A stretch of DNA of 47,003 nt from Patescibacteria group bacterium (GTDB taxonomy: Bacteria > Patescibacteriota > Minisyncoccia > Phycocordibacterales > Phycocordibacteraceae): assembly GCA_018970425.1 (NCBI GenBank), contig JAGWWK010000001.1, positions 1 through 47,003 on the forward strand, in the 5' to 3' direction. The position numbers and the translations under genes are program-made. This document shows positions 4,679 through 36,886 of the stretch, piece by piece; position 1 is the stretch's first letter; each line of letters begins with the position of its first letter. The notes under the pieces are model-generated. The model made no database searches. It saw nothing but the letters and a program-made list of their open reading frames with translations, and had not been told where the DNA came from.

Positions 4679-5967
4679 AAGGACTCAGCACATTTAGCGC
4701 CGTCGTTCTCGTTATATTTATTGCACTCGCACTCTTCGGAGTGTTTATCTTCGCGACATTTCAACAGTCTGCCCGAGATCGGATAGGTGAGGTGCAAGTT
4801 TGGGGCTCCATACCGCAGGACGCGTTTGACGCGGTTATCGGCTCTGTGCGCGACGCGCGGAGCGACTTTGCCGATGTGAGTTATGAAGAGGTGCCCGCAG
4901 ACACTCTGATGCCGCGCCTTGTTGAAGCAATAGCGGCGGGGCGGGGGCCTGACCTCGTGCTATTTCCCTCATCGAGCGTACTCAAAGATGGCGATAAACT
5001 GAGTCCCATACCGTATGCGCAGTTTCCACGGCGAGACTTTCAAGACACATTTGTTGAAGCAGGCGAGGTGTTTCTCACCGGAGAGGGAATACTCGCAATT
5101 CCAATTTCTATAGATCCGCTTGTTATGTACTGGAACCGTTCACTGTACGCGAGTGCGGGTATCGCATCGCCACCACGCTTTTGGGATGACTTCACACGCA
5201 TCGCACCCCGATTGAGTTCACGAACACAGAGCGGAACGCTCACAGCAAGCGCGGTCGCCTTCGGTACGTGGGAAAACGTCTCGCATGCAAAGGCAGTCTT
5301 TGTCACGATAGTGCGCTCGCTCGGGTCTCCGATAGTGACGCGTCGCGATGATGGGACGATCGACGCATCGCTCCGCTCAAATACAACTGCCGATCCAGCT
5401 GCGAGCGCGCTCAGGTTCGTGGCGGACTTTGCCGATCCTGTAAAGTCGGTATACTCATGGAACAGTGCCCAGAAGCAGAGCCGTGACGCGTTTCTTGCCG
5501 GCACCTTGGCAACCTATATAGCGCCCGCATCTGAACTTGCCTCCCTGCGACAGGGGAATCCGAATCTTAATTTCGATGTGGCAGCACTGCCCACGGCGCG
5601 CGGCGCGTTCGGTTTTGTGGGTGCGGAGGTGTTAGGTATTGGTATTCCGCGCGGCTCAAATAACACAGCTGGCGCGCTTCAGGCCGCGTTCCTTTTGTCA
5701 GCGTCAGCACAGCAAAAACTTCTTGCCGAAGAGTTGACACTGCCTTCGCCACGGCGCGACACTCCAATTACCGATCCCGCGCTCGCGTACACCGCCGTGT
5801 TTGAAGCGGCCGCCCTTCGCGGGTATGCATTCCTCGATCCAGATCCGCGCGCAACGGAAGCGCTCTTTAGCCGTATGGTTGAGAGCGTGGCAAGTGGACG
5901 CGCGACAGTATCGGAAGCCATATCGGCTGCGCATAACGACTTGCAGGCGCTCGTCAGGGTGCGATAA
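4675..5967 (+). CDS. Extracellular solute-binding protein (ABC-type, family 1-like) with N-terminal TM anchor; no adjacent permease or ATPase
   Basis: ATGA overlap with the methyltransferase gene. N-terminal hydrophobic anchor. GPDLVLFPSS and IDPLVMYWNRSLY are typical of sugar-type SBPs. Confidence 0.65.
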   Translation: MKGLSTFSAVVLVIFIALALFGVFIFATFQQSARDRIGEVQVWGSIPQDAFDAVIGSVRDARSDFADVSYEEVPADTLMPRLVEAIAAGRGPDLVLFPSSSVLKDGDKLSPIPYAQFPRRDFQDTFVEAGEVFLTGEGILAIPISIDPLVMYWNRSLYASAGIASPPRFWDDFTRIAPRLSSRTQSGTLTASAVAFGTWENVSHAKAVFVTIVRSLGSPIVTRRDDGTIDASLRSNTTADPAASALRFVADFADPVKSVYSWNSAQKQSRDAFLAGTLATYIAPASELASLRQGNPNLNFDVAALPTARGAFGFVGAEVLGIGIPRGSNNTAGALQAAFLLSASAQQKLLAEELTLPSPRRDTPITDPALAYTAVFEAAALRGYAFLDPDPRATEALFSRMVESVASGRATVSEAISAAHNDLQALVRVR

Positions 5968-6311
5968 TGACAAGCATGGTACACTCATCTCTTCGTACAG
6001 CTACTGCGTTTCTTCTAGCCACGGTTCCAACGCTCGCACTTGCCGCTCCGGCGACACTCACTAACCCGATCGGGACGAACAGTATCTCAGAACTTCTCGC
6101 AAATCTCCTCGGGCTTATTGCTATGATTGCGTTCCCGATCATCGTGCTTTTCATTGTGTACATCGGCTTTCTTTTTGTGACGTCGCGCGGAAATCCGGAA
6201 AAGCTCTCAAAAGCTCGTGAATACCTGTTGTATGCAGTCATTGGCGCGCTCCTCGTCTTAGGTGCTGAGGCACTGTCCCTGGCTATCCAGGCAACCGTCG
6301 AGCAACTCTAA
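5967..6311 (+). CDS. Small secreted two-TM protein, TrbC/VirB2-like (CPR-type T4SS pilin-like), paralog 1
   Basis: Signal peptide ending LALAAPA, then two TM helices separated by GNPEKLSKAREYLLYAVIG. This motif is shared with ORFs 6315, 6650, 7215 and the N-terminus of 19025. Confidence 0.5.
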   Translation: MTSMVHSSLRTATAFLLATVPTLALAAPATLTNPIGTNSISELLANLLGLIAMIAFPIIVLFIVYIGFLFVTSRGNPEKLSKAREYLLYAVIGALLVLGAEALSLAIQATVEQL

Positions 6312-6314
6312 CGC

Positions 6315-6557
6315 ATGGACCTCACCGACCTCATTGTGCTCGTTACTGAACTGATATGGATAACGATTCCGATTGCCTTTGCATTTGCGCTACTCGGATT
6401 TTTTTGGGGGATTGTTCAGCTCATGGGCGCGCTCGATAACGCAGACAAGCGCGCGGACGCGCGCCAGATGCTCCTCTGGTCCGTTATTGCGCTGTTCGTT
6501 ATCGCATCTCTTGCCGGCATAATAGAGCTATTGGTTTCATCCGTTCCGGGCCTGTAA
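6315..6557 (+). CDS. Small two-TM pilin-like protein, paralog 2
   Basis: TM1, then ALDNADKRADARQMLLWSVIALFVIASL (TM2); same architecture as 5967. Confidence 0.5.
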   Translation: MDLTDLIVLVTELIWITIPIAFAFALLGFFWGIVQLMGALDNADKRADARQMLLWSVIALFVIASLAGIIELLVSSVPGL

Positions 6558-6649
6558 CCACTATCCACATACGGCGTGCCCGAAAGGATACGCGCGTGTG
6601 TGGGTGGTACTATGACGGTATAGCAATTAGCAATAAACATATTTTGTTC

Positions 6650-7003
6650 ATGTCCACGTTTGCAAAGATTTCACTGGCAGGCACGCTCCTCGTAGCGCCG
6701 GCGCTCGCGTTCGCAGCAACACTGACCGATATCGTTAACACAGTTGGTAACCTTATCTCGCTCGCGACACCGATCGTCCTTGCCCTCGCGCTCGTGTATT
6801 TCTTCTGGGGCCTCGCAAACTTCATTCTCTCATCAGGAGAGGCAGATAAGCGCAACGAGGCAATCGCAATCATGATCTATGGCGTTATCGCCCTCTTCGT
6901 CATGGTATCGGTTTGGGGAATCGTCAACGTGCTTCAGTCAACGTTCCAGGTACAGTCGAGTGGCGATATTCGCGCACCGAGCGTACAGGGAGTAGGTAGG
7001 TAA
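6650..7003 (+). CDS. Small secreted two-TM pilin-like protein, paralog 3
   Basis: ORF 6596..7003 trimmed to ATG 6650 (MSTFAKISLAGTLLVAPALAFA signal peptide); SSGEADKRNEAIAIMIYGVIALFVMVSVWG. Confidence 0.5.
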   Translation: MSTFAKISLAGTLLVAPALAFAATLTDIVNTVGNLISLATPIVLALALVYFFWGLANFILSSGEADKRNEAIAIMIYGVIALFVMVSVWGIVNVLQSTFQVQSSGDIRAPSVQGVGR

Positions 7004-7004
7004 T

Positions 7005-7208
7005 GTGGAGAAAAGGTCTTCAATTTTAGAGACCACATCACGAGCGAACGCGCTCGCCGAGCTCGGCGAGCGCGGTCGTCGTTCTAAGACCTTCGTTATA
7101 GTGGCACTTGTTACTGGCCTCTTTGCTATCCTCGCACTTGTCGCGGTGTTCGCGTTTGGCTCGCGAGGGCCCGCATCATCCGTTCCGATACCGACCGTAA
7201 CTCGCTAA
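7005..7208 (+). CDS. Hypothetical single-TM protein (67 aa, GTG start)
   Basis: Fills the gap between pilin-like paralogs on the same strand; TM FVIVALVTGLFAILALVAVFAF. Confidence 0.4.
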   Translation: MEKRSSILETTSRANALAELGERGRRSKTFVIVALVTGLFAILALVAVFAFGSRGPASSVPIPTVTR

Positions 7209-7214
7209 ATACAT

Positions 7215-7472
7215 ATGGATAGACTTTCGCAATTCATAGGTAATGTTGTCGATCTGATTATTCAACCGCTCATCGTACTTCTGGTAGTCGCGGGAGTAGC
7301 GTTCTTTATCTGGAGCATTGCGCTCTACCTCTGGAACGCGAACGACGCGGAAAAGCGAAAGGAGGGCACGCAGGCCCTCCTCTGGGGTGTTGTTGGAATA
7401 CTGATCATGGTTGCCGTGATCGGCATACTCCAGATAGTTACCGCCACATTTGGTGTCTCGCTACCGCGCTAA
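7215..7472 (+). CDS. Small two-TM pilin-like protein, paralog 4
   Basis: TM1, then NANDAEKRKEGTQALLWGVVGILIMVAV (TM2). Confidence 0.5.
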   Translation: MDRLSQFIGNVVDLIIQPLIVLLVVAGVAFFIWSIALYLWNANDAEKRKEGTQALLWGVVGILIMVAVIGILQIVTATFGVSLPR

Positions 7473-8330: not shown

Positions 8331-8403
8331 CCGCCCATAGCTCAGCTGGTAGAGCACTCGCCTCTTAAGCGATTGGTCCTTGGTTCGAATCCAAGTGGGC
8401 GGA
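8331..8403 (+). tRNA. tRNA-Lys (anticodon CUU)
   Basis: ccgccca/tgggcgg acceptor, D arm gctcagctggtagagc, anticodon loop ctcttaa, T arm cttggttcgaatccaag. Confidence 0.9.
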
Positions 8404-8410
8404 CTTGATC

Positions 8411-8436: not shown

Positions 8437-8444
8437 GTATACAA

Positions 8445-8550
8445 GTCCGAGGCGGAGCGCTGTTTTGCGTCTCGCAAAACCGCGAGCCGGGGTCGCGAAA
8501 CCGACGAACGCAGGTGAGGAGGTATTTGTGACGACGCGTCCGAGGCGGAG
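8445..8550 (+). repeat. tRNA 3'-flank module (E-family, Lys/Leu subtype) bounded by 13-nt direct repeats gtccgaggcggag
   Basis: Direct repeats at 8445-8457 and 8538-8550 (aagtccgaggcgga loosely resembles the tRNA-Lys 3' end aagtgggcgga). Inside are hairpin gttttgcg-tct-cgcaaaac, ggggtcgcgaaacc, and a loop gacgaacgcaggtga related to GAACGAAGGTGA of the other modules. Confidence 0.5.
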
Positions 8551-8670: not shown

Positions 8671-8722
8671 CTATGAACATTGAGGCCCGACCATGCGTCG
8701 GGTTGGTCATGTGCGCTGTCAC

Positions 8723-13036: not shown

Positions 13037-14033
13037 CTCCGATACCATCAACTAGGACACTCGGTTAGCTAATAATACCTCCTCTGCCGTTTGAAACCCC
13101 AGACACTGTCTGGGTGTTTTATTAAGAAGTCGGTCGATTTCTATAAGTTGTGCAGTGGTCACCAATCTCAGATCTGATCGTTTCGGTACGATGGTACGTA
13201 TCCAGCGATTCGTGTTCTCGACCAACCCCTTCTCCCACGAACAATACGGAGAGGCGAAATAGAATGGTACTGACAGAGACAGCTCAAGAAGCTGCCACTT
13301 CTGGAATACGATGTCGTTGTCTGTGGTGATGGTCAGAAGCTGATGCTTCTGTTTGATACGACCAAGCTCACGGAGTACGGCATGGTGGGTCTTCCGATAC
13401 AGCTTCCGTACCAGTGCATACCTGGTCCACCGATCCACAAGCACCAACAAGACCACCGGTGACTGTCTCGACACAATGAAATCAAGTTCCCAGTGTCCTG
13501 AGGTACGGACATGAGGTCGAGAAGCAATGAGCTTCTTGGCCGTATCTGAGGGAAGTCGTGTCCCTCGCTTTCGTCCTCTCTTCTGGTGGTGTCTCTCCCA
13601 GAAGAGGTACTGCTCTAATGCACGACTTCGTACATACCGGTATATCGCTTTCTGCGTGATGGGCATGGCGGTTCGTCTCGCATATCCTGCAATACGCTCA
13701 GGTGACCATCCCAAGACCAACTTCTCTCGGACCAATTGCGTCAGCTCGGGACTCAGTGCCACCTTCATGCAGTTCTGCTTGGACCTCCAGCGCCTCACAT
13801 AGGTCTTGTGGTGTGCTTTCCGTGAGCGATACACCCCACAGACCATCTTTTCCCGCACCTCCTTGGAGACCGTATTCACACTACGACCCAGTGACAGAGC
13901 GATAGACCTGAGACTCAATCCACGCCTCCTCAGCGTCTCAATCGAGACGCGTTCCTCATAGGTTAACTGCTGATAGGTGGTTCCTTTTCTCATCACTCCA
14001 GTGTACGGAGTGTCCTAGTGCAAAGTATCGGGG
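13037..14033 (-). mobile_element. IS30-family insertion sequence (~1.0 kb) with imperfect 26-bp terminal inverted repeats
   Basis: Left end ctccgataccatcaactaggacactc (13037-13062) matches the reverse complement of gagtgtcctagtgcaaagtatcgggg (14008-14033) at 21/26 positions. It encloses a single transposase ORF and looks lower in GC than the flanks. Confidence 0.8.
13052..13996 (-). CDS. IS30-family DDE transposase
   Basis: N-terminal HTH (LTYEERVSIETLRRRGLSLRSIALSLGRSVNTVSKEV), then the catalytic core (WELDFI ... TTDND ... SWEKGLVENTNRWIR). Confidence 0.9.
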   Translation of the reverse strand: MMRKGTTYQQLTYEERVSIETLRRRGLSLRSIALSLGRSVNTVSKEVREKMVCGVYRSRKAHHKTYVRRWRSKQNCMKVALSPELTQLVREKLVLGWSPERIAGYARRTAMPITQKAIYRYVRSRALEQYLFWERHHQKRGRKRGTRLPSDTAKKLIASRPHVRTSGHWELDFIVSRQSPVVLLVLVDRWTRYALVRKLYRKTHHAVLRELGRIKQKHQLLTITTDNDIVFQKWQLLELSLSVPFYFASPYCSWEKGLVENTNRWIRTIVPKRSDLRLVTTAQLIEIDRLLNKTPRQCLGFQTAEEVLLANRVS

Positions 14034-15291: not shown

Positions 15292-17985
15292 ATGCAACCT
15301 CTTCCCTCATTCAACAATTTTACGACTAAAGCCAAGGAGGCAGTACGCAAGGCGCATGAGCTTGCTATTGAGCGCGGGCAGAACCAGGTGTCGTCGCTTC
15401 ACATGGCTGTTGCGCTCATGGTGCAGGAGGAGTCTATCGTTGTTTCCATCCTTGAGCGGCTTGATGTAGATATTGTGCTCTTTACCGATTCACTCATTGA
15501 ACTTTTTGAATCACCGCAGAGCAACCAAACCGTTGCTCCTTCGTACCAGCTCTACCTCACGCCGGACCTTGTACAGGCGCTTGAAACATCAGTAAAAGTG
15601 GCAACACAGATTGGAGAGGCATTTGTGTCTGTAGAACACTTGTTCCTTGGTGTCTTGCAACATCCGGGCCCCGCTACAGACGTTTTTAATCGATTCCGTA
15701 TCGATCGAAATGCGGTGATGAACGTTATGCAGGAGCTGAAGTCGTCGCGCGAGGTTCAAGCGGAGCCGCAAAAAAAGTTCCGCGCGCTTCCTAAATACAC
15801 GCGTAACTTGACTAAGCTCGCCTCTGACAATAAGCTCGACCCGGTCATCGGGCGCGATGTGGAGATAAACCGCGTGATCCAAATACTTTCGCGCCGCACG
15901 AAGAATAACCCGATTCTGATTGGTGAAGCTGGGGTTGGAAAGACAGCGATTGCGGAAGGGCTCGCGCAGCGAATGGCTGTGGGCGATGTACCAGAGTCAC
16001 TACGCAACAAAGAGCTTCTGACGCTTGACCTCGGACTCCTCATAGCGGGGACAAAGTATCGTGGAGAGTTTGAAGAGCGCCTCAAAAACATTATGAAAGA
16101 GGTCGAGCGCGCAGAGGGCAAGGTAATTTTGTTCGTCGACGAGATACACACCATTGTAGGGGCCGGCGCGGCGGAAGGGTCAATGGATGCGTCAAATATG
16201 CTTAAGCCCGCGCTTGCTCGAGGCGATATGCGGATCATCGGTGCGACAACCTTGAAAGAATACCAAATGCACATTGAGCGCGATCCGGCCCTTACGCGCC
16301 GCTTCCAACCGGTCTACGTGCAGGAGCCCGACCGAGAGGATGCAATAGCAATTCTTCGCGGGTTGCGCGAGAAGTATGAGTTGTACCACGGCGTACGGAT
16401 TACTGACGCGGCGATTGTTGCGGCAGTTGACCTGTCCTCGCGCTACATATCTGACCGATTCCTCCCGGACAAGGCGGTGGACCTCATTGATGAGGCGGCA
16501 TCAGCTCTTCGTATATCGCTTGAAAACAAACCACCTCAGCTTGAAGAAACTGACCGCAAGATCCGACGGCTCGAAATTGAGCTCGAGGCCTTGAAAAAAG
16601 ACGAGGCCGCGCATGAGGGGAAGGGTGAGCGTACGCGCATGAAAGAAATTGAGCGTGAGGTAGCGGAGCTCCGAGCCGAAACTGCTGACCTTGAAGTGAA
16701 GTGGAAGAATGAGAAAGAGGCATTGTCTGCTATTGGCACGCTTAAGAAAGAGATGGAGGAGTTGCGCGCCGAGGCGGAGTCTGCCGAGGCGCGGGCTGAT
16801 CTCGGACGTGCAGCTGAAATTCGCTACGGCAGATTGCCCACGCTCTCCGAGCAGCTCGCAAAAGAAAACGCCAAGCTATCTAAGCTGCAAAAGAATCGCC
16901 GCGTTCTCAAGGAGGAAGTTACCGAGTCGGAGATCGCGAGTGTGGTGAGCCGATGGACCGGCGTACCTGTATCGCGCATGCTCGAGGCCGAGGCGCACAA
17001 GCTTGCGCGCATGGAAGAAGAGCTTAAGAAGCAGGTTGTCGGACAGGATGAGGCAGTGCAGCTTATTTCAGATGCGGTTAAGCGATCGCGCGTGGGAATT
17101 GCCGACCCCAATCGCCCCATTGGATCATTCCTGTTTCTCGGACCAACGGGTGTCGGTAAGACGGAGCTCTCAAAGTCAGTCGCTCGGTTCATGTTTGATG
17201 ACGAAAACGCCATCATTCGTGTCGACATGTCCGAGTTTATGGAGAAGCACAGTGTGTCAAAGATGATTGGCTCGCCGCCCGGCTATGTGGGACACGAGGA
17301 AGGTGGGGCGCTTACGGAAAAAATAAGGCACCGGCCGTATGCGGTCGTTTTGTTTGACGAGATAGAAAAGGCGCACCCTGAAGTGTTTAACATCTTGCTT
17401 CAGGTGCTTGATTCAGGCCACCTTACTGACGCTAAGGGTCGAAAGGTCAACTTCAAGAACTCGATCATCATACTCACCTCTAACATAGGGAGCGAGTTCA
17501 TCGACAAGATGTCGTCGTTCGGTTTTACGCACGCCACAGGTGAGGCGGCTGAGTACGCGCACACAAAAGATAAAGTAATGAACGCGCTCAAGGACTACTT
17601 CCGCCCAGAGTTCCTCAACCGTCTTGACGAAATCATTCTCTTCAATATTCTCTCCCAAGAAGCCATCAAATCTATTGTCTCGATGCAGGTGAAGATTGTA
17701 CAGGATCGTCTAAAGTCAAAAGACATAACGCTCGAAATAAAGCCAGAAGTGTATGAGTACCTTGTGAAGGAGGGATACAACCCACACTACGGCGCGCGCC
17801 CCCTCAAGCGCCTCATTCAATCAAAGATCCTCACCCCCGTAGCCTCATTTATGGTAGGGCAGGGCGTGATGGAAGGAGGCACCATAATCGTGGGCCTTAA
17901 GAATAACGAATTCACCTTTGACGTGAAAAAGACCGCACGCGCAACAAAGAATCATCGTGCGAAAGCGCACGCAGAGGTTGCGTAG
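15292..17985 (+). CDS. clpB: ATP-dependent chaperone ClpB
   Basis: 897 aa. Clp N domain, two AAA+ modules ([13 protein letters not shown]; [12 protein letters not shown]), and a long coiled-coil middle domain between them. Confidence 0.95.
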
Positions 17986-18138: not shown

Positions 18139-18215
18139 CCGAGAGAGGGTCGTAGACAACTCGCTTGTATACGACCGAACGAGACGCGCGGGCAAGGCTT
18201 CCTTACCCGGCGCAC
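18129..18215 (+). repeat. Short tRNA 3'-flank module (E-family) bounded by 11-nt direct repeats of the tRNA-Tyr 3' end
   Basis: acccggcgcac at 18129-18139 (inside the tRNA) and 18205-18215. Between them are hairpin ggtcgta-N13-tacgacc and gaacgagacgcgcgggcaag, which resembles the cgcgggcgag end of the Trp/Val modules. Confidence 0.5.
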
Positions 18216-18301: not shown

Positions 18302-18457
18302 ATGTCGCAAGATAATCTTCTGAGACTCAAGTCGCCGTCGGGAACGATGGTTTATACTCGCAAGAACAAGAAAAAGCTTGCGAACGTCAAGCTCTCTCTC
18401 AAAAAGTTTGATAAAAAGTTGAGAAAACGTGCTGTCTTTAAAGAGGTCAAAAAGTAA
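18302..18457 (+). CDS. rpmG: 50S ribosomal protein L33 (51 aa; below the ORF-track cutoff)
   Basis: Hand translation: MSQDNLLRLKSPSGTMVYTRKNKKKLANVKLSLKKFDKKLRKRAVFKEVKK. It matches the L33 pattern (YxTxKNKR...L.LKKFDP..R.H..FKE.K). Confidence 0.8.
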   Translation: MSQDNLLRLKSPSGTMVYTRKNKKKLANVKLSLKKFDKKLRKRAVFKEVKK

Positions 18458-18463
18458 GGCATA

Positions 18464-18485
18464 ATGACCCCATCGGGGTCATTTT
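18464..18485 (+). terminator. Rho-independent terminator after rpmG
   Basis: atgacccc-atc-ggggtcat followed by tttt. Confidence 0.7.
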
Positions 18486-18495
18486 GATTACCGAA

Positions 18496-18641
18496 GGGCC
18501 TATAAGCAAAGCTTCTAGGCCCGGCACTCGGACGCCATAAGTGCAAGCACTCGCGGCGCTCCTCGTTAGGGCCTATAAGCAAAGCTTCTAGGCCCGTCAC
18601 TCGGACACCATGAGTGCAAGCACTCGCGGCGCTCCTCGTTA
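18496..18641 (+). repeat. Two tandem 73-nt tRNA 5'-flank modules (U-family): tRNA-Trp acceptor-stem minihelix mimic plus conserved 45-nt hairpin
   Basis: Units 18496-18568 and 18569-18641 are 70/73 identical. Each begins gggcctata (the first 9 nt of tRNA-Trp) and folds gggccta-t-aagc-aaa-gctt-c-taggccc-g. Then follows ctcggacgcc..gagtgcaagcactc..ggcgctcc. Confidence 0.85.
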
Positions 18642-18712
18642 GGGCCTATAGTTCAATGGTAGAACGACGGTCTCCAAAACCGTTAATCCAGGTTCGAGTC
18701 CTGGTGGGCCCG
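18642..18712 (+). tRNA. tRNA-Trp (anticodon CCA)
   Basis: gggccta/tgggccc acceptor, anticodon loop ctccaaa, T arm ccaggttcgagtcctgg, discriminator G. Confidence 0.9.
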
Positions 18713-18973
18713 CAGATGCGAAGCATCGAGAGGACTCGAACGCTGAGCGGTGCGAGTCGCTGCGACGAGCCGCGAAGCGGTGCCCAGCAGGTACCCGAAC
18801 GAAGGTGAGGGAACCTGCGCGGGCGAGGACTACGTGGGCTCCGAGATGCGAAGCATCGAGAGGACTCGAACGCTGAGCGGTGCGAGTCGCTGCGACGAGC
18901 CGCGAAGCGGTGCCCAGCAGGTACCCGAACGAAGGTGAGGGAACCTGCGCGGGCGAGTCCTGGTGGGCCCGCA
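18699..18973 (+). repeat. Two identical 113-nt tRNA 3'-flank modules (E-family) in tandem (130-nt period), interleaved with copies of the tRNA-Trp 3' end
   Basis: E copies at 18715-18827 and 18845-18957 are identical. tcctggtgggcccgca occurs at 18699-18714 (in the tRNA) and 18958-18973; a degenerate copy gactacgtgggctccga lies at 18828-18844. Confidence 0.85.
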
Positions 18974-19024: not shown

Positions 19025-20134
19025 ATGCGTCGCTTATTTATTGCGGGGGCCGTTGCTCTGCTTACAGCGCCAACACTCGCGTTTGCGCAAACGGGTTTCT
19101 TTGGACCTATTGTACCCGAGTGCCTAGAGTTTACCGGCACTATTCGCGTCTGTCAGTTGTGTAACCTCGTCCAGCTTGCCGACAATCTGCTTAAGCTCTT
19201 TGTGTCGCTCTCTGTTGTCGCTGCAACGCTCATGTTCGCGTATGCAGGTTTCCTGTATGTTACAGCAGCAGCCAATCAGGGCAACATAGACTCCGCGAAA
19301 AGTATTTTTTCAAATACACTTATTGGGCTCATTATCATTCTAGTAGCCTTTCTCGGAATCAGTACTCTGATCCGAGTCCTAACTGGGAATGACTTACGAT
19401 TCTATACTGCCATTCAGTGCGTACAGCGCTATACGTTGGATTCCGATTTGCCAATGTTTACAGGAGTGCCTCCCATGCCATCTGTCGGCGCTACGGCCGG
19501 TGGAGCTCGAAGTGCAAGTTCTACCGCTGCTAGTGCAACTGGAAAAGGATTATCAAATGTAGACTCAAATACAAACTATAACCCGGTCGCGTGCAAAAAA
19601 ATTATAAATTACATGAGCTCTGGCCCTGGAGCGAGCTGTACGTCTGAGGCACGAAAAGCTGACCCACGCGTCGAGACTGAGTGCATGCAGGGCTGCATGG
19701 GCTCTGCGTCTGGGAAGCGCATAATAACGGCGCAAGAATACCTTTTTTGTCAGAGAAACCCTAGCAGTAGCCTAGCAGCAATTACTCAAATTGCGCCTTG
19801 GAGGTCTTACGGTTCAATGAAGTGTTCAGATGCAACCAAACAAGGTGTCACGGTCGCAATTCCTCAGGGTAGCGATATACCGCTCGGTCAGCGCTTCACA
19901 TGGCCGGAACTAGCCGATCGGTATGGTTTACCCAAGGATACTGTGTTTTCAGCTGAGGACAGGTATGCCCGTACATGCCCAGGGGGGAGACTCTGCGGTG
20001 TTATTCCCGAAAGAAACGCGCTTTCAGTCGATGTGGCACGCTGTATTTACGGAGCACCCAACTGCACCTTAAAACAGTTTTCTAGCGAGACTCCGATGAA
20101 GACGAAGCCGACGCCAGTACCTCCTGGGGGGTAA
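19025..20134 (+). CDS. Secreted fusion protein: N-terminal pilin-like two-TM domain plus ~230-aa Cys-rich C-terminal domain
   Basis: Signal peptide ending TLAFAQ; TM1, then AAANQGNIDSAKSIFSNTLIGLIIILVAFLG (same motif as the 5967-7472 paralogs); the C-terminal region has about 12 Cys. Confidence 0.6.
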   Translation: MRRLFIAGAVALLTAPTLAFAQTGFFGPIVPECLEFTGTIRVCQLCNLVQLADNLLKLFVSLSVVAATLMFAYAGFLYVTAAANQGNIDSAKSIFSNTLIGLIIILVAFLGISTLIRVLTGNDLRFYTAIQCVQRYTLDSDLPMFTGVPPMPSVGATAGGARSASSTAASATGKGLSNVDSNTNYNPVACKKIINYMSSGPGASCTSEARKADPRVETECMQGCMGSASGKRIITAQEYLFCQRNPSSSLAAITQIAPWRSYGSMKCSDATKQGVTVAIPQGSDIPLGQRFTWPELADRYGLPKDTVFSAEDRYARTCPGGRLCGVIPERNALSVDVARCIYGAPNCTLKQFSSETPMKTKPTPVPPGG

Positions 20135-21683: not shown

Positions 21684-21875
21684 GTGCCGGGAGAGAGACT
21701 CGGTCACAACTCGAATACTCACCTTCGTTCGTATTCGGTCGCGACCCCAGCTCGGGCACGCTCGAGACGAGCGGCATAGCGCCCTCCGCTTTTCTCGTCT
21801 CATTCCGGCAATGACAAAGCAAAACCGAAGCAGTGCTTCGGTATTTGATAGTCATAGTGCCGGGAGAGAGACTCG
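21684..21875 (-). repeat. tRNA 3'-flank module (E-family, Lys/Leu subtype, 154 nt) bounded by 19-nt direct repeats of the tRNA-Leu(CAA) 3' end
   Basis: gtgccgggagagagactcg at 21684-21702 and 21857-21875. On the tRNA strand the insert contains gcgtgcccgag, ggggtcgcgacc and hairpin gaatac-GAACGAAGGTGA-gtattc (plus-strand 21713-21736). Confidence 0.75.
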
Positions 21876-21938
21876 AACTCTCACCCCTTGCGAGACACGA
21901 TTTTGAGTCGTGCGCGTCTACCATTCCGCCATCCCGGC
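21858..21938 (-). tRNA. tRNA-Leu (anticodon CAA), long variable arm
   Basis: Reverse complement gccgggatggcggaatggtagacgcgcacgactcaaaatcgtg...gagagttcgagtctctctcccggca. Confidence 0.9.
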
Positions 21939-34335: not shown

Positions 34336-34408
34336 GAGTGAGGAGCGCCGCGAGTGCTTGCACTCATGGCGTCCGAGCGATGGACCCGCACTGTTTCAGT
34401 TTGGGCCT
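34336..34408 (-). repeat. Single 73-nt tRNA 5'-flank module (U-family, Ala type) abutting tRNA-Ala(UGC)
   Basis: The reverse complement is 72/73 identical to the units at 36741-36886 (aggcccaaactgaaacagtgcgggtcca + tcgctcggacgccatgagtgcaagcactcgcggcgctcctcactc). Confidence 0.85.
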
Positions 34409-35320: not shown

Positions 35321-35397
35321 GGGCGGCTAGCTCAGCTGGTTAGAGCGCACGCTTCACACGCGTGAGGTCACAGGTTCGATTCCTGTGCTGCCCACCA
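35321..35397 (+). tRNA. tRNA-Val (anticodon CAC), CCA encoded
   Basis: gggcggc/gctgccc acceptor, anticodon loop ttcacac, T arm acaggttcgattcctgt. Confidence 0.9.
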
Positions 35398-35601
35398 AGT
35401 ATCGCCTGATACTTGGGGCAGCAGCACGCACTGCGTGCGGCAGGAATCGAACGCCGGAGCGATGTGTGATGTTTCATCACACCGCGAGGCGGTGCCCAGG
35501 CCAAGTCCGACCGAAGGGGAGGACGAGAGCCGCGGGCGACTTCCTGTGCTGCCCACCAAGTATCGCCTGATACTTGGGGCAGCAGCACGCACTGCGTGCG
35601 G
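35380..35601 (+). repeat. tRNA 3'-flank module (E-family, 100 nt) bounded by 61-nt direct repeats (last 18 nt of tRNA-Val plus a 43-nt two-hairpin trailer)
   Basis: Direct repeats at 35380-35440 and 35541-35601 are identical. The insert 35441-35540 shares cgaacgc-gagcg, ccgcgaggcggtgcccag, hairpin gtcc-GACCGAAGGGGA-ggac and cgcgggcgac with the Trp module. Confidence 0.85.
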
Positions 35602-35752
35602 TTTGGGGAGAATTTCTTGGTCGGGCCGTAAGCACTTCGTGCTTTCTTCCAGCGCTCGCTCGGAAATATAAAAAAATTTCTATTTCCCTCGCTCGCTCGG
35701 AAGTAGTACAGTAGTACGTGCGGTTTGGGGAGAATTTCTTGGTCGGGCCGTA
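35596..35752 (+). repeat. 35-nt direct repeat (26-nt leader plus the first 9 nt of tRNA-Pro) with a 122-nt period
   Basis: gtgcggtttggggagaatttcttggtcgggccgta at 35596-35630 and 35718-35752. The first copy continues into hairpin agcac-ttc-gtgct and an AT-rich inverted repeat ggaaata..tatttcc. Confidence 0.8.
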
Positions 35753-35817: not shown

Positions 35818-35977
35818 AGAAATGCTCCGAGTGTCTGGTAGACACTCGTGGTCGCAGTGCGAGTAAAGACTGGGTTCGATTCCCAGCGGCCCGACCAAGA
35901 AATGCTCCGAGTGTCTGGTAGACACTCGTGGTCGCAGTGCGAGTAAAGACTGGGTTCGATTCCCAGCGGCCCCACCA
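35818..35977 (+). repeat. Two tandem 80-nt units: a 46-nt hairpin spacer plus a copy of the 3' 34 nt of tRNA-Pro(CGG), from the variable region to CCA
   Basis: Units at 35818-35897 and 35898-35977. The spacer agaaatgctccgagtgtctggtagacactcgtggtcgcagtgcgag contains an 8-bp hairpin cgagtgtc/gacactcg. The last copy has cggccccacca instead of cggcccgacca. Confidence 0.85.
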
Positions 35978-36010
35978 AAATGCTATTTTCTAGCTAGAAG
36001 ACAAGCGTCC

Positions 36011-36146
36011 GTCCCATCGTTTCGGGAAGGATTCACGCCAGCGTGGTATCCTCTCCCTACACTCGGGCCGTAAGCCTGGCTTCCGTCCCATCGTTCCGGG
36101 AAGGATTCACGCCAGCGTGGTATCCTCTCCCTACACTCGGGCCGTA
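36011..36146 (+). repeat. 62-nt direct repeat (74-nt period) containing a -10-like box, a leader, and the first 9 nt of tRNA-Pro(GGG)
   Basis: gtcccatcgtt(t/c)cgggaaggattcacgccagcgtggtatcctctccctacactcgggccgta at 36011-36072 and 36085-36146 (61/62 identical). tggtatcct boxes at 36044-36052 and 36118-36126. Confidence 0.85.
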
Positions 36147-36740: not shown

Positions 36741-36886
36741 GGGCCCAAACTGAAACAGTGCGGGTCCATCGCTCGGACGCCATGAGTGCAAGCACTCGCG
36801 GCGCTCCTCACTCGGGCCCAAACTGAAACAGTGCGGGTCCATCGCTCGGACGCCATGAGTGCAAGCACTCGCGGCGCTCCTCACTC
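36741..36886 (+). repeat. Two identical tandem 73-nt tRNA 5'-flank modules (U-family, Ala type): tRNA-Ala acceptor minihelix mimic (G3:U70 kept) plus conserved 45-nt hairpin
   Basis: Units at 36741-36813 and 36814-36886: gggccc-aaa-ctg-aaa-cag-tgc-gggtcc-a, then tcgctcggacgccatgagtgcaagcactcgcggcgctcctcactc. They abut tRNA-Ala(GGC). Confidence 0.88.

Follow-up and report, generated by a model that had tools for sequence, protein, structure and literature searches.

What are two identical, highly structured modules of 113 nucleotides (nt) doing directly behind an intact tRNA gene, each of them followed by a further copy of the 3' end of that tRNA? The question is raised by a stretch of 47,003 nt from a Patescibacteria group bacterium (positions 1 to 47,003 of contig JAGWWK010000001.1, assembly GCA_018970425.1; hereafter the window), in which the module, here called E, occurs twice after the gene for tRNA-Trp. 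A preliminary description made from the letters of the window proposed that E is either a small non-autonomous element homing into the 3' halves of tRNA genes or a functional RNA encoded in the tRNA trailer. The analysis reported here establishes that E is a member of an undescribed family of non-coding elements of ~100 nt that reside within tRNA transcription units of Paceibacteria, which belong to the candidate phyla radiation (CPR).

The data covered the 47-kb window and flanks of 8-22 kb or less from relatives, with seven syntenic loci among them; individual loci are cited by number (L001 and so on) where they must be told apart. The ClpB gene of the window (15292-17985) has homologs that are 80-90% identical in genomes named Kaiserbacteria, Paceibacterota or Patescibacteria, and the identity is 90% for L043, 89% for L001, 88% for L044 and 84% for L002. 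Further copies were sought with degenerate pattern scans of one genome per GTDB species and of JGI/ENA metagenome contigs, which returned true copies amid chance matches, and with a covariance model (R1) built on 14 sequences.

An undescribed family behind tRNA genes

At the tRNA-Trp locus, the two modules (E1, 18715-18827; E2, 18845-18957) are identical at 113 of 113 positions, and Tandem Repeats Finder reports an array with a period of 130 and 2.1 copies, in agreement with a repeat search. All coordinates of this layout in the preliminary description hold. The copy of the tRNA 3' end between the modules has diverged, though the 129 nt on each side of it stayed identical, and the last piece of the copy behind E2 (TCCTGGTGGGCCCGCA, 18958-18973), which had been called exact, equals tRNA positions 18699-18714. 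Likewise, the 11-nt stretch AGGACTCGAAC at 18731-18741 is the exact reverse complement of 18692-18702 in the T arm (18688-18704) of the tRNA, whose discriminator G at 18712 is followed by CA, the CCA end not being encoded. The hairpins claimed for E appear in its computed fold, at -55.7 kcal/mol (z = -5.3 relative to dinucleotide shuffles). In core 1, hairpin HA reads CGCT-GA-GCGGT..GCCGC-GA-AGCG and hairpin HB reads CCC..CAGGTACCC-GAACGAAGGTGA-GGGAACCTG..GGG. The parts follow one another in the order tRNA, hairpin x, antisense segment a', two-hairpin core, tRNA 3'-end copy a, and downstream flank, and a' and a pair to form a helix termed H1.

Searches with R1 yielded 36 good matches, spread over the window and 20 other Paceibacteria contigs, and three more in closer relatives, so the copies outside the contig that the preliminary description had called for do exist. 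A tRNA gene on the same strand lies just upstream of 34 of the 36 matches, and two matches are truncated at the end of a locus. The distance to this tRNA is 15-69 nt in 30 cases and 156 nt in one, and the other three matches are later units of tandem arrays. Thirteen amino-acid types are represented (Leu, Asp, Ile, Trp, Tyr, Gly, Val, Thr, Lys, Gln, Pro, Ser and Arg). Both E1 and E2 possess the feature that marks the family, a three-way junction closed by H1 right behind a same-strand tRNA (scores for all copies in the window are in Table 1).

About a third of the tRNAs in the window carry E. The relatives of E that had been claimed after tRNA-Val, tRNA-Leu(CAA) and tRNA-Lys are all matched by R1. 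The copy behind tRNA-Val consists of an a' segment antisense to the T arm of that tRNA (CAGGAATCGAAC, 35441-35452), a core (35453-35536) and CGAC, and it sits between exact 61-nt direct repeats (35380-35440 and 35541-35601), each of which begins in the T loop and extends to where the trailer hairpins end. The rearranged copy behind tRNA-Leu(CAA), which has orthologs in L001 and L018, carries the lower HB stem of sub-family 2 (GGTCGCGAC/GTTGTGACC) and is followed by the tRNA copy AGTCTCTCTCCCGGCAC (21684-21700) and a terminator. In the sub-family 2 copy behind tRNA-Lys, which resembles a copy behind tRNA-Lys in L045, the 5' strand is antisense to the 3' end of the acceptor (GTCC). The stretch behind tRNA-Tyr, which had been listed as a further copy, does belong to the family, but as an internally deleted remnant that is recognizable only against L043 and L002.

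No established class of RNA or mobile element accounts for these matches in the databases searched. A trivial match to a known family was looked for in Rfam 15, where only tRNAs reach threshold in the window and nothing overlaps E or the 5' leaders described below at E-values up to 5-10. Pattern scans of IMG/VR viral contigs gave 34 matches that are due to chance and were rejected by the covariance model, and BLAST searches of GenBank phages and PLSDB plasmids did not find E. Full-text literature searches returned no description of tRNA-matched trailers in CPR bacteria. Chance similarity and assembly artefact, the second of which had been named in advance as a possible refutation, are refuted by the recurrence of the same architecture in independent NCBI, JGI, ENA and Logan assemblies together with covariation, and their joint probability is negligible. 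The sole point in favor of an artefact is that tandem arrays break assemblies, as in L002 and L018, where arrays of at least three units interrupt the assemblies and leave runs of N. A protein-coding E was also considered and set aside: the open reading frames (ORFs) that cross E run over a repeat irrespective of frame and form no family.

Antisense segments and 3' copies matched to each tRNA

The a' segment is an antisense of ~12 nt to nt 53-64 of the adjacent tRNA. In 21 members, its seven variable nucleotides match their own tRNA at 5.76 of 7 positions and other tRNAs at 3.69 of 7 (permutation p <= 5e-5). The 3' copy starts at nt 56 or 57, which agrees with the earlier proposal that the junction falls in the T loop, and most members have it exact as far as nt 73/74. 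Three young or tandem cases carry a longer copy that continues through the trailer hairpin, and the length of the duplication ranges from 11 to 61 nt. On both of its sides the core directly meets T-loop sequence that is universally conserved (..TCGAAC to the left, CGA.. to the right).

Both segments follow their tRNA as it changes. Copies behind tRNA-Leu(CAA) track lineage-specific changes of the acceptor, such that those of L001 and of the window and L018 each equal their own tRNA, and the orthologous E copies behind tRNA-Trp in the window and in L002 each track their own, different T arm. The idea that a' might be a sense copy of the 5' strand of the T stem, given the palindromic TTCGAA, is ruled out, as a' holds the complement of nt 59-60 and as a' behind tRNA-Trp of L002 follows the G-U-paired 3' strand (A opposite T64), not the 5' strand. 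Two other proposals of the preliminary description, that the antisense is a guide that homes E and that the 3' copy arose by classical target-site duplication, are not established; masking of the duplicated tRNA fragment seems the more likely task of a'.

A conserved RNA-type fold

RNAalifold predicts a three-way junction for the core, with compensatory changes in 24 of 31 pairs. This junction is closed on the tRNA-sense strand by H1, in which a' pairs with the opening 8-9 nt of the 3' copy. Internal GA/GA loops lie in HA, a bulged A and the apex GA-NC-GNAG-GN-GA in HB, and both the GA-rich internal loops and the HB apex are conserved. For 37 distinct sequences, in an alignment that is itself fitted to the model, paired cells amount to 93.5% as against 34-46% when the partners are slid, changes on both sides occur in 28 of 31 pairs, and none of 500 shuffles attains the observed values. 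The core helices contain 34 G-U pairs and four A-C pairs, and this excess implies that the fold is selected on the tRNA-sense strand, which together with the tandem G-A motifs points to RNA. The earlier suggestion of a conserved RNA structure is thus well supported by strong covariation, by the strand-specific G-U excess and by copies in many genomes.

In nearly all copies, the sequence from G53 of the tRNA through the trailer to a' also folds as one long hairpin, of which x, often an A-run, a hairpin and a U-run, is the apex. The 16-nt 5' hairpin reported earlier for E is the apex of this fold-back between T arm and antisense, which had been missed. With a promoter-like site upstream, no terminator-like site found between 18466 and 18975, and the copy behind tRNA-Val located inside a tRNA cluster, E is probably co-transcribed with the tRNA at tRNA-Trp and tRNA-Val, judging from sequence signals.

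Gain, loss and replacement among close relatives

E is dispensable and dynamic, being gained, lost, replaced, tandemly amplified via its direct repeats, and decayed. The tRNA-Trp gene has neither E nor a leader module in L043; one leader module and a drifted E with no tRNA copy in L001; one E in L002; and two leader modules and two E copies in the window. L044 shares the tRNA 3' end of the window, yet its x and core differ, and a variant of HA specific to that genome is common to its copies behind tRNA-Trp and tRNA-Tyr. Behind tRNA-Tyr, E is intact in L002 and L044, bears the same deletion in the window and L043, and is absent in L001. Behind tRNA-Leu(CAA), it is present in the window, L001 and L018 and absent in L002, and the tRNA-Leu(TAG) of the window is without E. 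Copy number ranges from one to at least three. Similarity among cores tracks neither tRNA type nor genome cleanly, the tree being noisy because only about 100 nt are available.

The empty sites that were to be looked for in sister genomes have therefore been found (tRNA-Trp of L043, tRNA-Leu(CAA) of L002 and tRNA-Tyr of L001), and the proposed element-like behavior with no adjacent mobility gene is seen in presence and absence, same-site replacement, tandem arrays and decayed remnants. Clustering of the ORFs within 2.5 kb of all copies revealed no recurrent mobility gene; what recurs are syntenic housekeeping genes, for instance those for the CCA-adding enzyme, ParB, AhpC and MiaA. There is no integrase gene in the window or near copies, and no reverse transcriptase (RT) gene among window genes or recurrent neighbors. 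The statement that no recombinase or RT gene is nearby holds for RT, integrase and endonuclease genes in the window, but an IS30-family transposase gene lies upstream of the tRNA-Trp array. This gene is absent at the syntenic position in L001 and L002.

A separate observation concerns the tRNA genes themselves. When the window is compared with L001, L043, L044 and L045 (ClpB 84-90% identical), the genes for tRNA-Tyr, tRNA-Trp, tRNA-Leu(CAA), tRNA-Lys, tRNA-Leu(TAA) and tRNA-Cys flip in orientation relative to the same neighbors; where tRNA genes carry modules, these turn with them.

A related family in tRNA leaders

A second family of modules, also missed by the preliminary description, surrounds the same tRNA-Trp on its 5' side. 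Its design is a copy of tRNA nt 1-9 (S), a loop, an antisense to nt 1-7 (S'), a conserved hairpin and then the tRNA. In each of the two units before tRNA-Trp, these parts are GGGCCTATA, the loop, TAGGCCC and the hairpin GGACGCC..GGCGCTCC. The family hairpin reads GGACGCC-AU-GAGUG-CAAG-CACUC-GC-GGCGCUCC and shows compensatory changes between genomes. Modules precede tRNA-Trp, tRNA-Ala(GGC) and tRNA-Ala(TGC) in the window and lie directly upstream of tRNAs in relatives, and S' is matched to the acceptor stem of each tRNA.

An insert of another kind occurs in L002, where a GIY-YIG ORF comes after a 26-nt duplicate of the 5' end of tRNA-Lys and ahead of the intact tRNA-Lys. The 5'-leader family and this GIY-YIG insert display the same arrangement of copy, insert and tRNA. 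HNH and LAGLIDADG genes adjoin tRNA genes in L003, L044, L045 and L046.

In sister genomes, small endonuclease genes of all three types lie directly against the 5' ends of tRNA genes or overlap them. Other 5' modules of the window have the same design and a different sequence, namely two 74-nt units before tRNA-Pro(GGG), each ending in TCGGGCCGT. In addition, a 36-nt direct repeat that includes the 5' end of tRNA-Pro(CGG) flanks an AT-rich insert.

Comparison with known systems

E does not qualify for any of the families considered, as far as their defining features can be judged from the window and the flanks of relatives. The tRNA-targeting integrative elements of the T-loop class likewise sit at the 3' part of a tRNA, leave the tRNA intact and are flanked on both sides by the stretch between T loop and 3' end, and direct repeats of this kind are indeed found with E (nt 56/57 to 73/74, exact in most members). 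However, E spans just 130-200 nt, is non-coding, contains no integrase gene, has no core-type inverted repeat at its right-hand copy, and has a conserved RNA-type fold and an internal T-arm antisense that set it apart. REPIN/RAYT systems and bacterial miniature inverted-repeat transposable elements (MITEs) are also non-autonomous, structured, gene-less repeats of ~100 nt that are intergenic, often near terminators and variable in copy number. In contrast, E occurs only behind tRNA genes, its inverted segments a' and a are tRNA-derived, site-specific and different at each tRNA, its duplications measure 11-61 nt, its G-U pairs and GA motifs point to RNA, and no parent insertion sequence (IS) or RAYT was found in the scans made or in the window and flanks covered. 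By analogy, E is somewhat like a tRNA-targeting integrative element reduced to the size of a MITE and given an RNA structure.

Short internal segments complementary to the insertion site are known from IS200/IS605 elements and from the bridge RNAs of IS110, but these rely on TnpA or on the IS110 recombinase, their pairing takes in 4 nt or uses two defined loops, and insertion of IS200/IS605 elements 3' of a 4-5-nt target entails no duplication. Neither system leaves a direct repeat of at least 18 nt, whereas repeats of at least 18 nt flank E and its antisense is ~12 nt long. The group I intron guide (P1/P10) offers another likeness, in that a' spans the junction in P10-then-P1 order, 8 nt pairing with the would-be 3' exon (nt 57-64) and GAAC with the end of the 5' exon (nt 53-56). 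Unlike such introns, E has C56-G or U55-A at the junction in place of a U-G pair, has a two-hairpin core of ~85 nt with no P3-P9 core, has no Rfam intron match, and would open with a copy of its own 3' exon behind a tRNA that is already complete. Free-standing homing-endonuclease cassettes at conserved genes (intronless homing) likewise bring GIY-YIG, HNH and LAGLIDADG genes to tRNAs, in L002 in the arrangement of copy, insert and intact tRNA, but E has no protein product, and those enzymes are only putative cutters of tRNA genes. RNAs from the 3' external transcribed spacer (ETS) of tRNA transcripts, such as 3'ETS-leuZ, also derive from a tRNA trailer; they differ in being short, unstructured sponges of single operons, with no tRNA antisense, no copy of the tRNA end and no family across many tRNAs.

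Several other classes can be dismissed more briefly. For the self-cleaving ribozymes (hammerhead, hepatitis delta virus (HDV)-like, twister, twister-sister, pistol and hatchet), no Rfam match was obtained at lenient thresholds, and in the predicted fold the junction strands AA / GUG / C are unlike the hammerhead core and the helix order is unlike the HDV fold. No RT gene, as expected next to a retron, group II intron, diversity-generating retroelement or non-LTR (long terminal repeat) element, is present in the window or among recurrent neighbors. T-box riboswitches are likewise not indicated, as E lies 3' of tRNA genes and has no Rfam T-box match. The nearest published ideas are the mobile archaeal tRNA introns and split-tRNA leaders (Fujishima et al. 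2009, 2010), which, as summarized in PMC10714607, are also short structured inserts at many tRNAs that are mobile and carry tRNA-matched complementary segments. E differs in leaving the tRNA uninterrupted (the upstream tRNA-Trp is complete), in having no bulge-helix-bulge at its junctions, and in residing in a bacterial host with no archaeal splicing endonuclease. The literature search placed CPR rRNA introns that carry homing endonucleases among the nearest ideas as well.

Explanations for the origin and role of E

The explanation that we tentatively prefer, though we hold it at slightly short of an even chance, is that E is a selfish insert, non-autonomous and placed within tRNA transcription units, and that its antisense serves to mask a redundant tRNA fragment. 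Such an insert would enter the tRNA gene at the T-loop position via break repair or recombination, and only versions that duplicate the tRNA 3' end would survive, because a single-copy tRNA must stay whole. The redundant 3' fragment in the co-transcript could then mispair with the T-stem and acceptor 5' strands of the real tRNA. By forming H1, a' would mask this fragment, as the S:S' hairpin would in the 5' family, and it would for that reason be personalized to its tRNA and co-evolve with it. The folded core may keep the insert a compact, self-contained domain to be trimmed away. Spread to empty alleles might occur through homing-type repair that is triggered in trans and anchored on the T-loop sequence bordering the core, with the HNH, GIY-YIG and LAGLIDADG genes at tRNA genes of sister genomes as candidate triggers. 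A number of observations speak against a selfish insert of this type. No enzyme for E was found in the window and the 2.5-kb neighborhoods, the IS30 transposase being unrelated, and no insertion event was caught between near-identical genomes, so that either 3' segment could be the newer one. The complementarity of a' to the real tRNA equals or exceeds that to the copy, which would suit a guide or a switch equally; GAAC, the antisense to nt 53-56, is always kept in a' though H1 does not need it; and the 3' copy is identical through nt 74, past what masking or H1 requires, in old lineages as well. About a third of copies have a terminator-like hairpin inside x, with which E would be poorly transcribed, yet its RNA-type structure is conserved. 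Finally, strong structural conservation in genomes of ~0.75 Mb could equally mean a function for the host.

Such a function is the substance of the trailer alternative raised in the preliminary description, which is the main rival even if we judge it rather unlikely. Here a' would pair either with the T arm of the newly made tRNA or with the downstream decoy copy in H1, the hairpin of a, x and a' would unfold the tRNA, and the conserved three-way junction would set the balance, possibly with a protein or ligand attached to it. The trailer might thereby gate tRNA folding, processing or decay, or give tRNA-like punctuation for RNase P/Z. The strong covariation, the sense-strand G-U bias, the conserved GA-rich loops and apex, and the long hairpin from T loop through trailer to a' in nearly all copies fit this idea, as do the co-evolution of a', tRNA and copy in old lineages too and the retention of H1 pairing where both strands have drifted from the tRNA sequence (tRNA-Trp of L001, tRNA-Gln of L030). 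Persistence in very small genomes and the parallel conserved 5'-leader family agree with it also. A switch of this kind is harder to reconcile with clean empty sites in close relatives, tolerated deletions, a copy number of one to at least three, presence at only about a third of the tRNAs in the window, replacement of the HB apex and HA by plain hairpins in L044, and terminator-like hairpins that often stand ahead of a'. It is unlikely that a' is a programmable guide. On this view E, as RNA or folded single-stranded DNA, would base-pair with the T arm on its exposed sense strand, and a host or trans-encoded enzyme would insert it next to that pairing while doubling the tRNA 3' end; IS200/IS605 guide-target pairing and IS110 bridge RNAs would be the nearest analogies. 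The specificity of a' for its tRNA, its often greater complementarity to the real tRNA than to the copy, a junction fixed at nt 56/57 opposite a variable one (11-61 nt duplication), core variants common to different tRNA sites within one genome, and strand-specific structure are what a guide would predict. Many of the pairings are imperfect, though (8-13/14 nt), no candidate effector is nearby, direct repeats of at least 18 nt are not a product of IS200/IS605 or IS110 chemistry, and we know of no mechanism that would rewrite a guide at every new tRNA.

Two further routes of insertion are less probable still. The 3' segments could be attL/attR-type repeats of a recombinase acting on the T loop, or E might integrate as a folded single strand in which H1 mimics the target duplex, by analogy to integron attC sites or to the CTX phage exploiting Xer. 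We consider this very unlikely even though the repeat extends between the T loop and the 3' end of the tRNA, which matches the T-loop class of tRNA integrase sites reportedly defined by Williams in 2002, tandem arrays exist, and the order tRNA, a, x, a', core, a would fit a single-strand exchange at nt 56/57 with a circle of a, x, a' and core. No integrase lies inside or beside any copy, the unit measures just 130-200 nt, no inverted core-type site adjoins the right-hand repeat, a proper 3' end and antisense would be needed for each of 13 tRNA types, and E is not found in viral contigs, phages or plasmids. Highly improbable is an element like the short interspersed nuclear elements (SINEs), in which read-through tRNA transcripts would be copied by a trans-acting RT with target priming at a DNA nick in the T loop. 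A fixed 3' and a variable 5' junction resemble target-primed reverse transcription, the structure is of RNA type on the sense strand, and the repeats end at RNA-defined borders (tRNA +1 in the 5' family, nt 73/74 in E), but the copies carry no post-transcriptional CCA, RT genes are missing from the window and from the surroundings of the copies, and the model leaves a' unexplained. Fold-back and template-switch repair, which would produce the order a, x, a', core, a, was rejected: it needs x to equal the start of the downstream flank, and x does so only in the youngest copies (tRNA-Val, tRNA-Leu(TAG) of L002 and tRNA-Leu(CAA) of L018). A group I-like guide, an IS91 target at GTTC and a restriction-type cut at TTCGAA each suit one junction and fail on other features. 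Taken across mechanisms, it is a somewhat doubtful but possible outcome that the antisense is a working part, either of a pairing-directed, gene-less element of ~100 nt or of a cis-acting trailer switch with the copy as its release, in which case the 5'-leader family would be the second half of the same system.

Genomic context and other features

Apart from the IS30 transposase gene, the genes of the window are housekeeping genes (ClpB, L33, MiaA, AhpC, ParB, the ATP synthase operon and others). Small genes resembling type IV secretion system (T4SS) pilins (PF18895) and one for a 369-amino-acid pilin-like protein adjoin tRNA loci (window 19025-20134 and 5967-7472, with equivalents in L001 and L002); pilin-like genes of this sort are typical of CPR genomes. 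A recurrent trailer hairpin module, ..TGAG-(A/G)CCCGAC-CATGC-GTCGGG(T/C).., stands behind different tRNAs, together with E in L001, L002 and L034 and in its absence behind the tRNA-Leu(TAA) of the window.

The window also contains tandem chimeric pseudo-tRNAs of 80 nt (35823-35978), with a tRNA-like 5' part of 41 nt that is 66% identical to tRNA-Pro and a 3' part that is 100% identical to the 3' part of tRNA-Pro(CGG), plus AGAAA. One of them is called tRNA-Ala(cgc) by ARAGORN, not by Rfam. At 35872-36073, Rfam gives sub-threshold matches to tmRNA (18.4 bits) and permuted tmRNA (24.3 bits; gathering score 47), and ARAGORN calls no tmRNA. These matches span the 3' part of the last pseudo-tRNA and the next leader module and are probably explained by the tRNA-like 3' end.

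Table 1. Positions of E, its parts and associated features in the window and in related loci (window coordinates unless a locus is named)
Feature	Position	Strand	Remarks
Promoter-like site TTTAAA-17-CATAAT	18437-18465	+	Consensus match only; could drive leader modules, tRNA-Trp and E1/E2 jointly
Two 73-nt 5'-leader units (M5)	18496-18641	+	Family related to E, distinct from E proper
tRNA-Trp(CCA), intact	18642-18714	+	ARAGORN; Rfam tRNA 72.5 bits; tRNA call ends at 18712/13
x1: hairpin GATGC-GAA-GCATC and GAG	18715-18730	+	Apex of fold-back linking tRNA T arm with antisense
a'1: antisense to tRNA-Trp nt 53-63	18731-18741	+	5' strand of closing helix H1
Core 1	18742-18823	+	Hairpin HA, linker GGTG, hairpin HB; R1 88.1 bits
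Degenerate tRNA 3'-end copy (CGAG GACTACGTGGGCTCCGA)	18824-18844	+	GACTACGTGGGCTCCGA itself at 18828-18844
x2	18845-18860	+	Identical to x1
a'2	18861-18871	+	Identical to a'1
Core 2	18872-18953	+	Identical to core 1; R1 98.5 bits
Exact copy of tRNA-Trp nt 56-73 and CA (CGAGTCCTGGTGGGCCCGCA)	18954-18973	+	3' strand of H1
E after tRNA-Val(CAC, 35321-35397)	35441-35540	+	100-nt homolog; R1 111.9 bits
Rearranged E after tRNA-Leu(CAA, 21857-21938, minus strand)	21684-21803	-	R1 48.8 bits
Sub-family 2 copy behind tRNA-Lys(CTT, 8331-8404) and its terminator	8439-8543	+	R1 36.0 bits
Internally deleted E remnant behind tRNA-Tyr (..GAACGAGACGCGCGGGCAAGG..), then 11-nt copy ACCCGGCGCAC	18141-18215	+	From comparison with relatives
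5'-leader modules, window	18496-18641; 36741-36886; 34336-34408 (-)		
5'-leader modules, relatives	L001 14632-14705; L003 1494-1560 (-); L007 711-774 (-)		
5'-leader modules, relatives	L042 74-156 and 2045-2114; L036 2347-2419		
Other 5' modules	35998-36145; 35595-35752		
Endonuclease genes at tRNAs	L002 4937-5369 (-); L003 3128-4595; L044 1764-2555; L045 78-815; L046 1413-1962		
IS30-family transposase gene	13052-13996	-	NCBIfam 3e-51; 4.7 kb upstream of tRNA-Trp array; no link to E
Trailer hairpin module	8671-8720; L001 19231-19275; L002 12844-12895; L034		

Implications

Genes for tRNAs are classic landing pads for large mobile elements. Their trick of duplicating a tRNA end, by which the tRNA stays whole, is shared by the 100-nt E, the 5'-leader family and small endonuclease genes, all in genomes of ~0.75 Mb. 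The model R1 and the 5'-leader alignment can be used now for the annotation of Patescibacteria, where they would also flag false ORF calls.

What else follows depends on which explanation is correct. If the antisense is a guide, E would be a new minimal nucleic-acid-guided mobile element with an easily reprogrammed natural address of 12 nt for tRNA genes. If E is a switch, it would add a new layer of tRNA control in CPR bacteria and reveal a step of tRNA maturation not recognized before as a point of control. If E is selfish, it would be the first of a class of minimal parasites that exploit tRNA transcription units, with an antisense that evolves to protect tRNA folding, and it would also account for the breaks of CPR assemblies at tRNA loci and for the changes in tRNA orientation.

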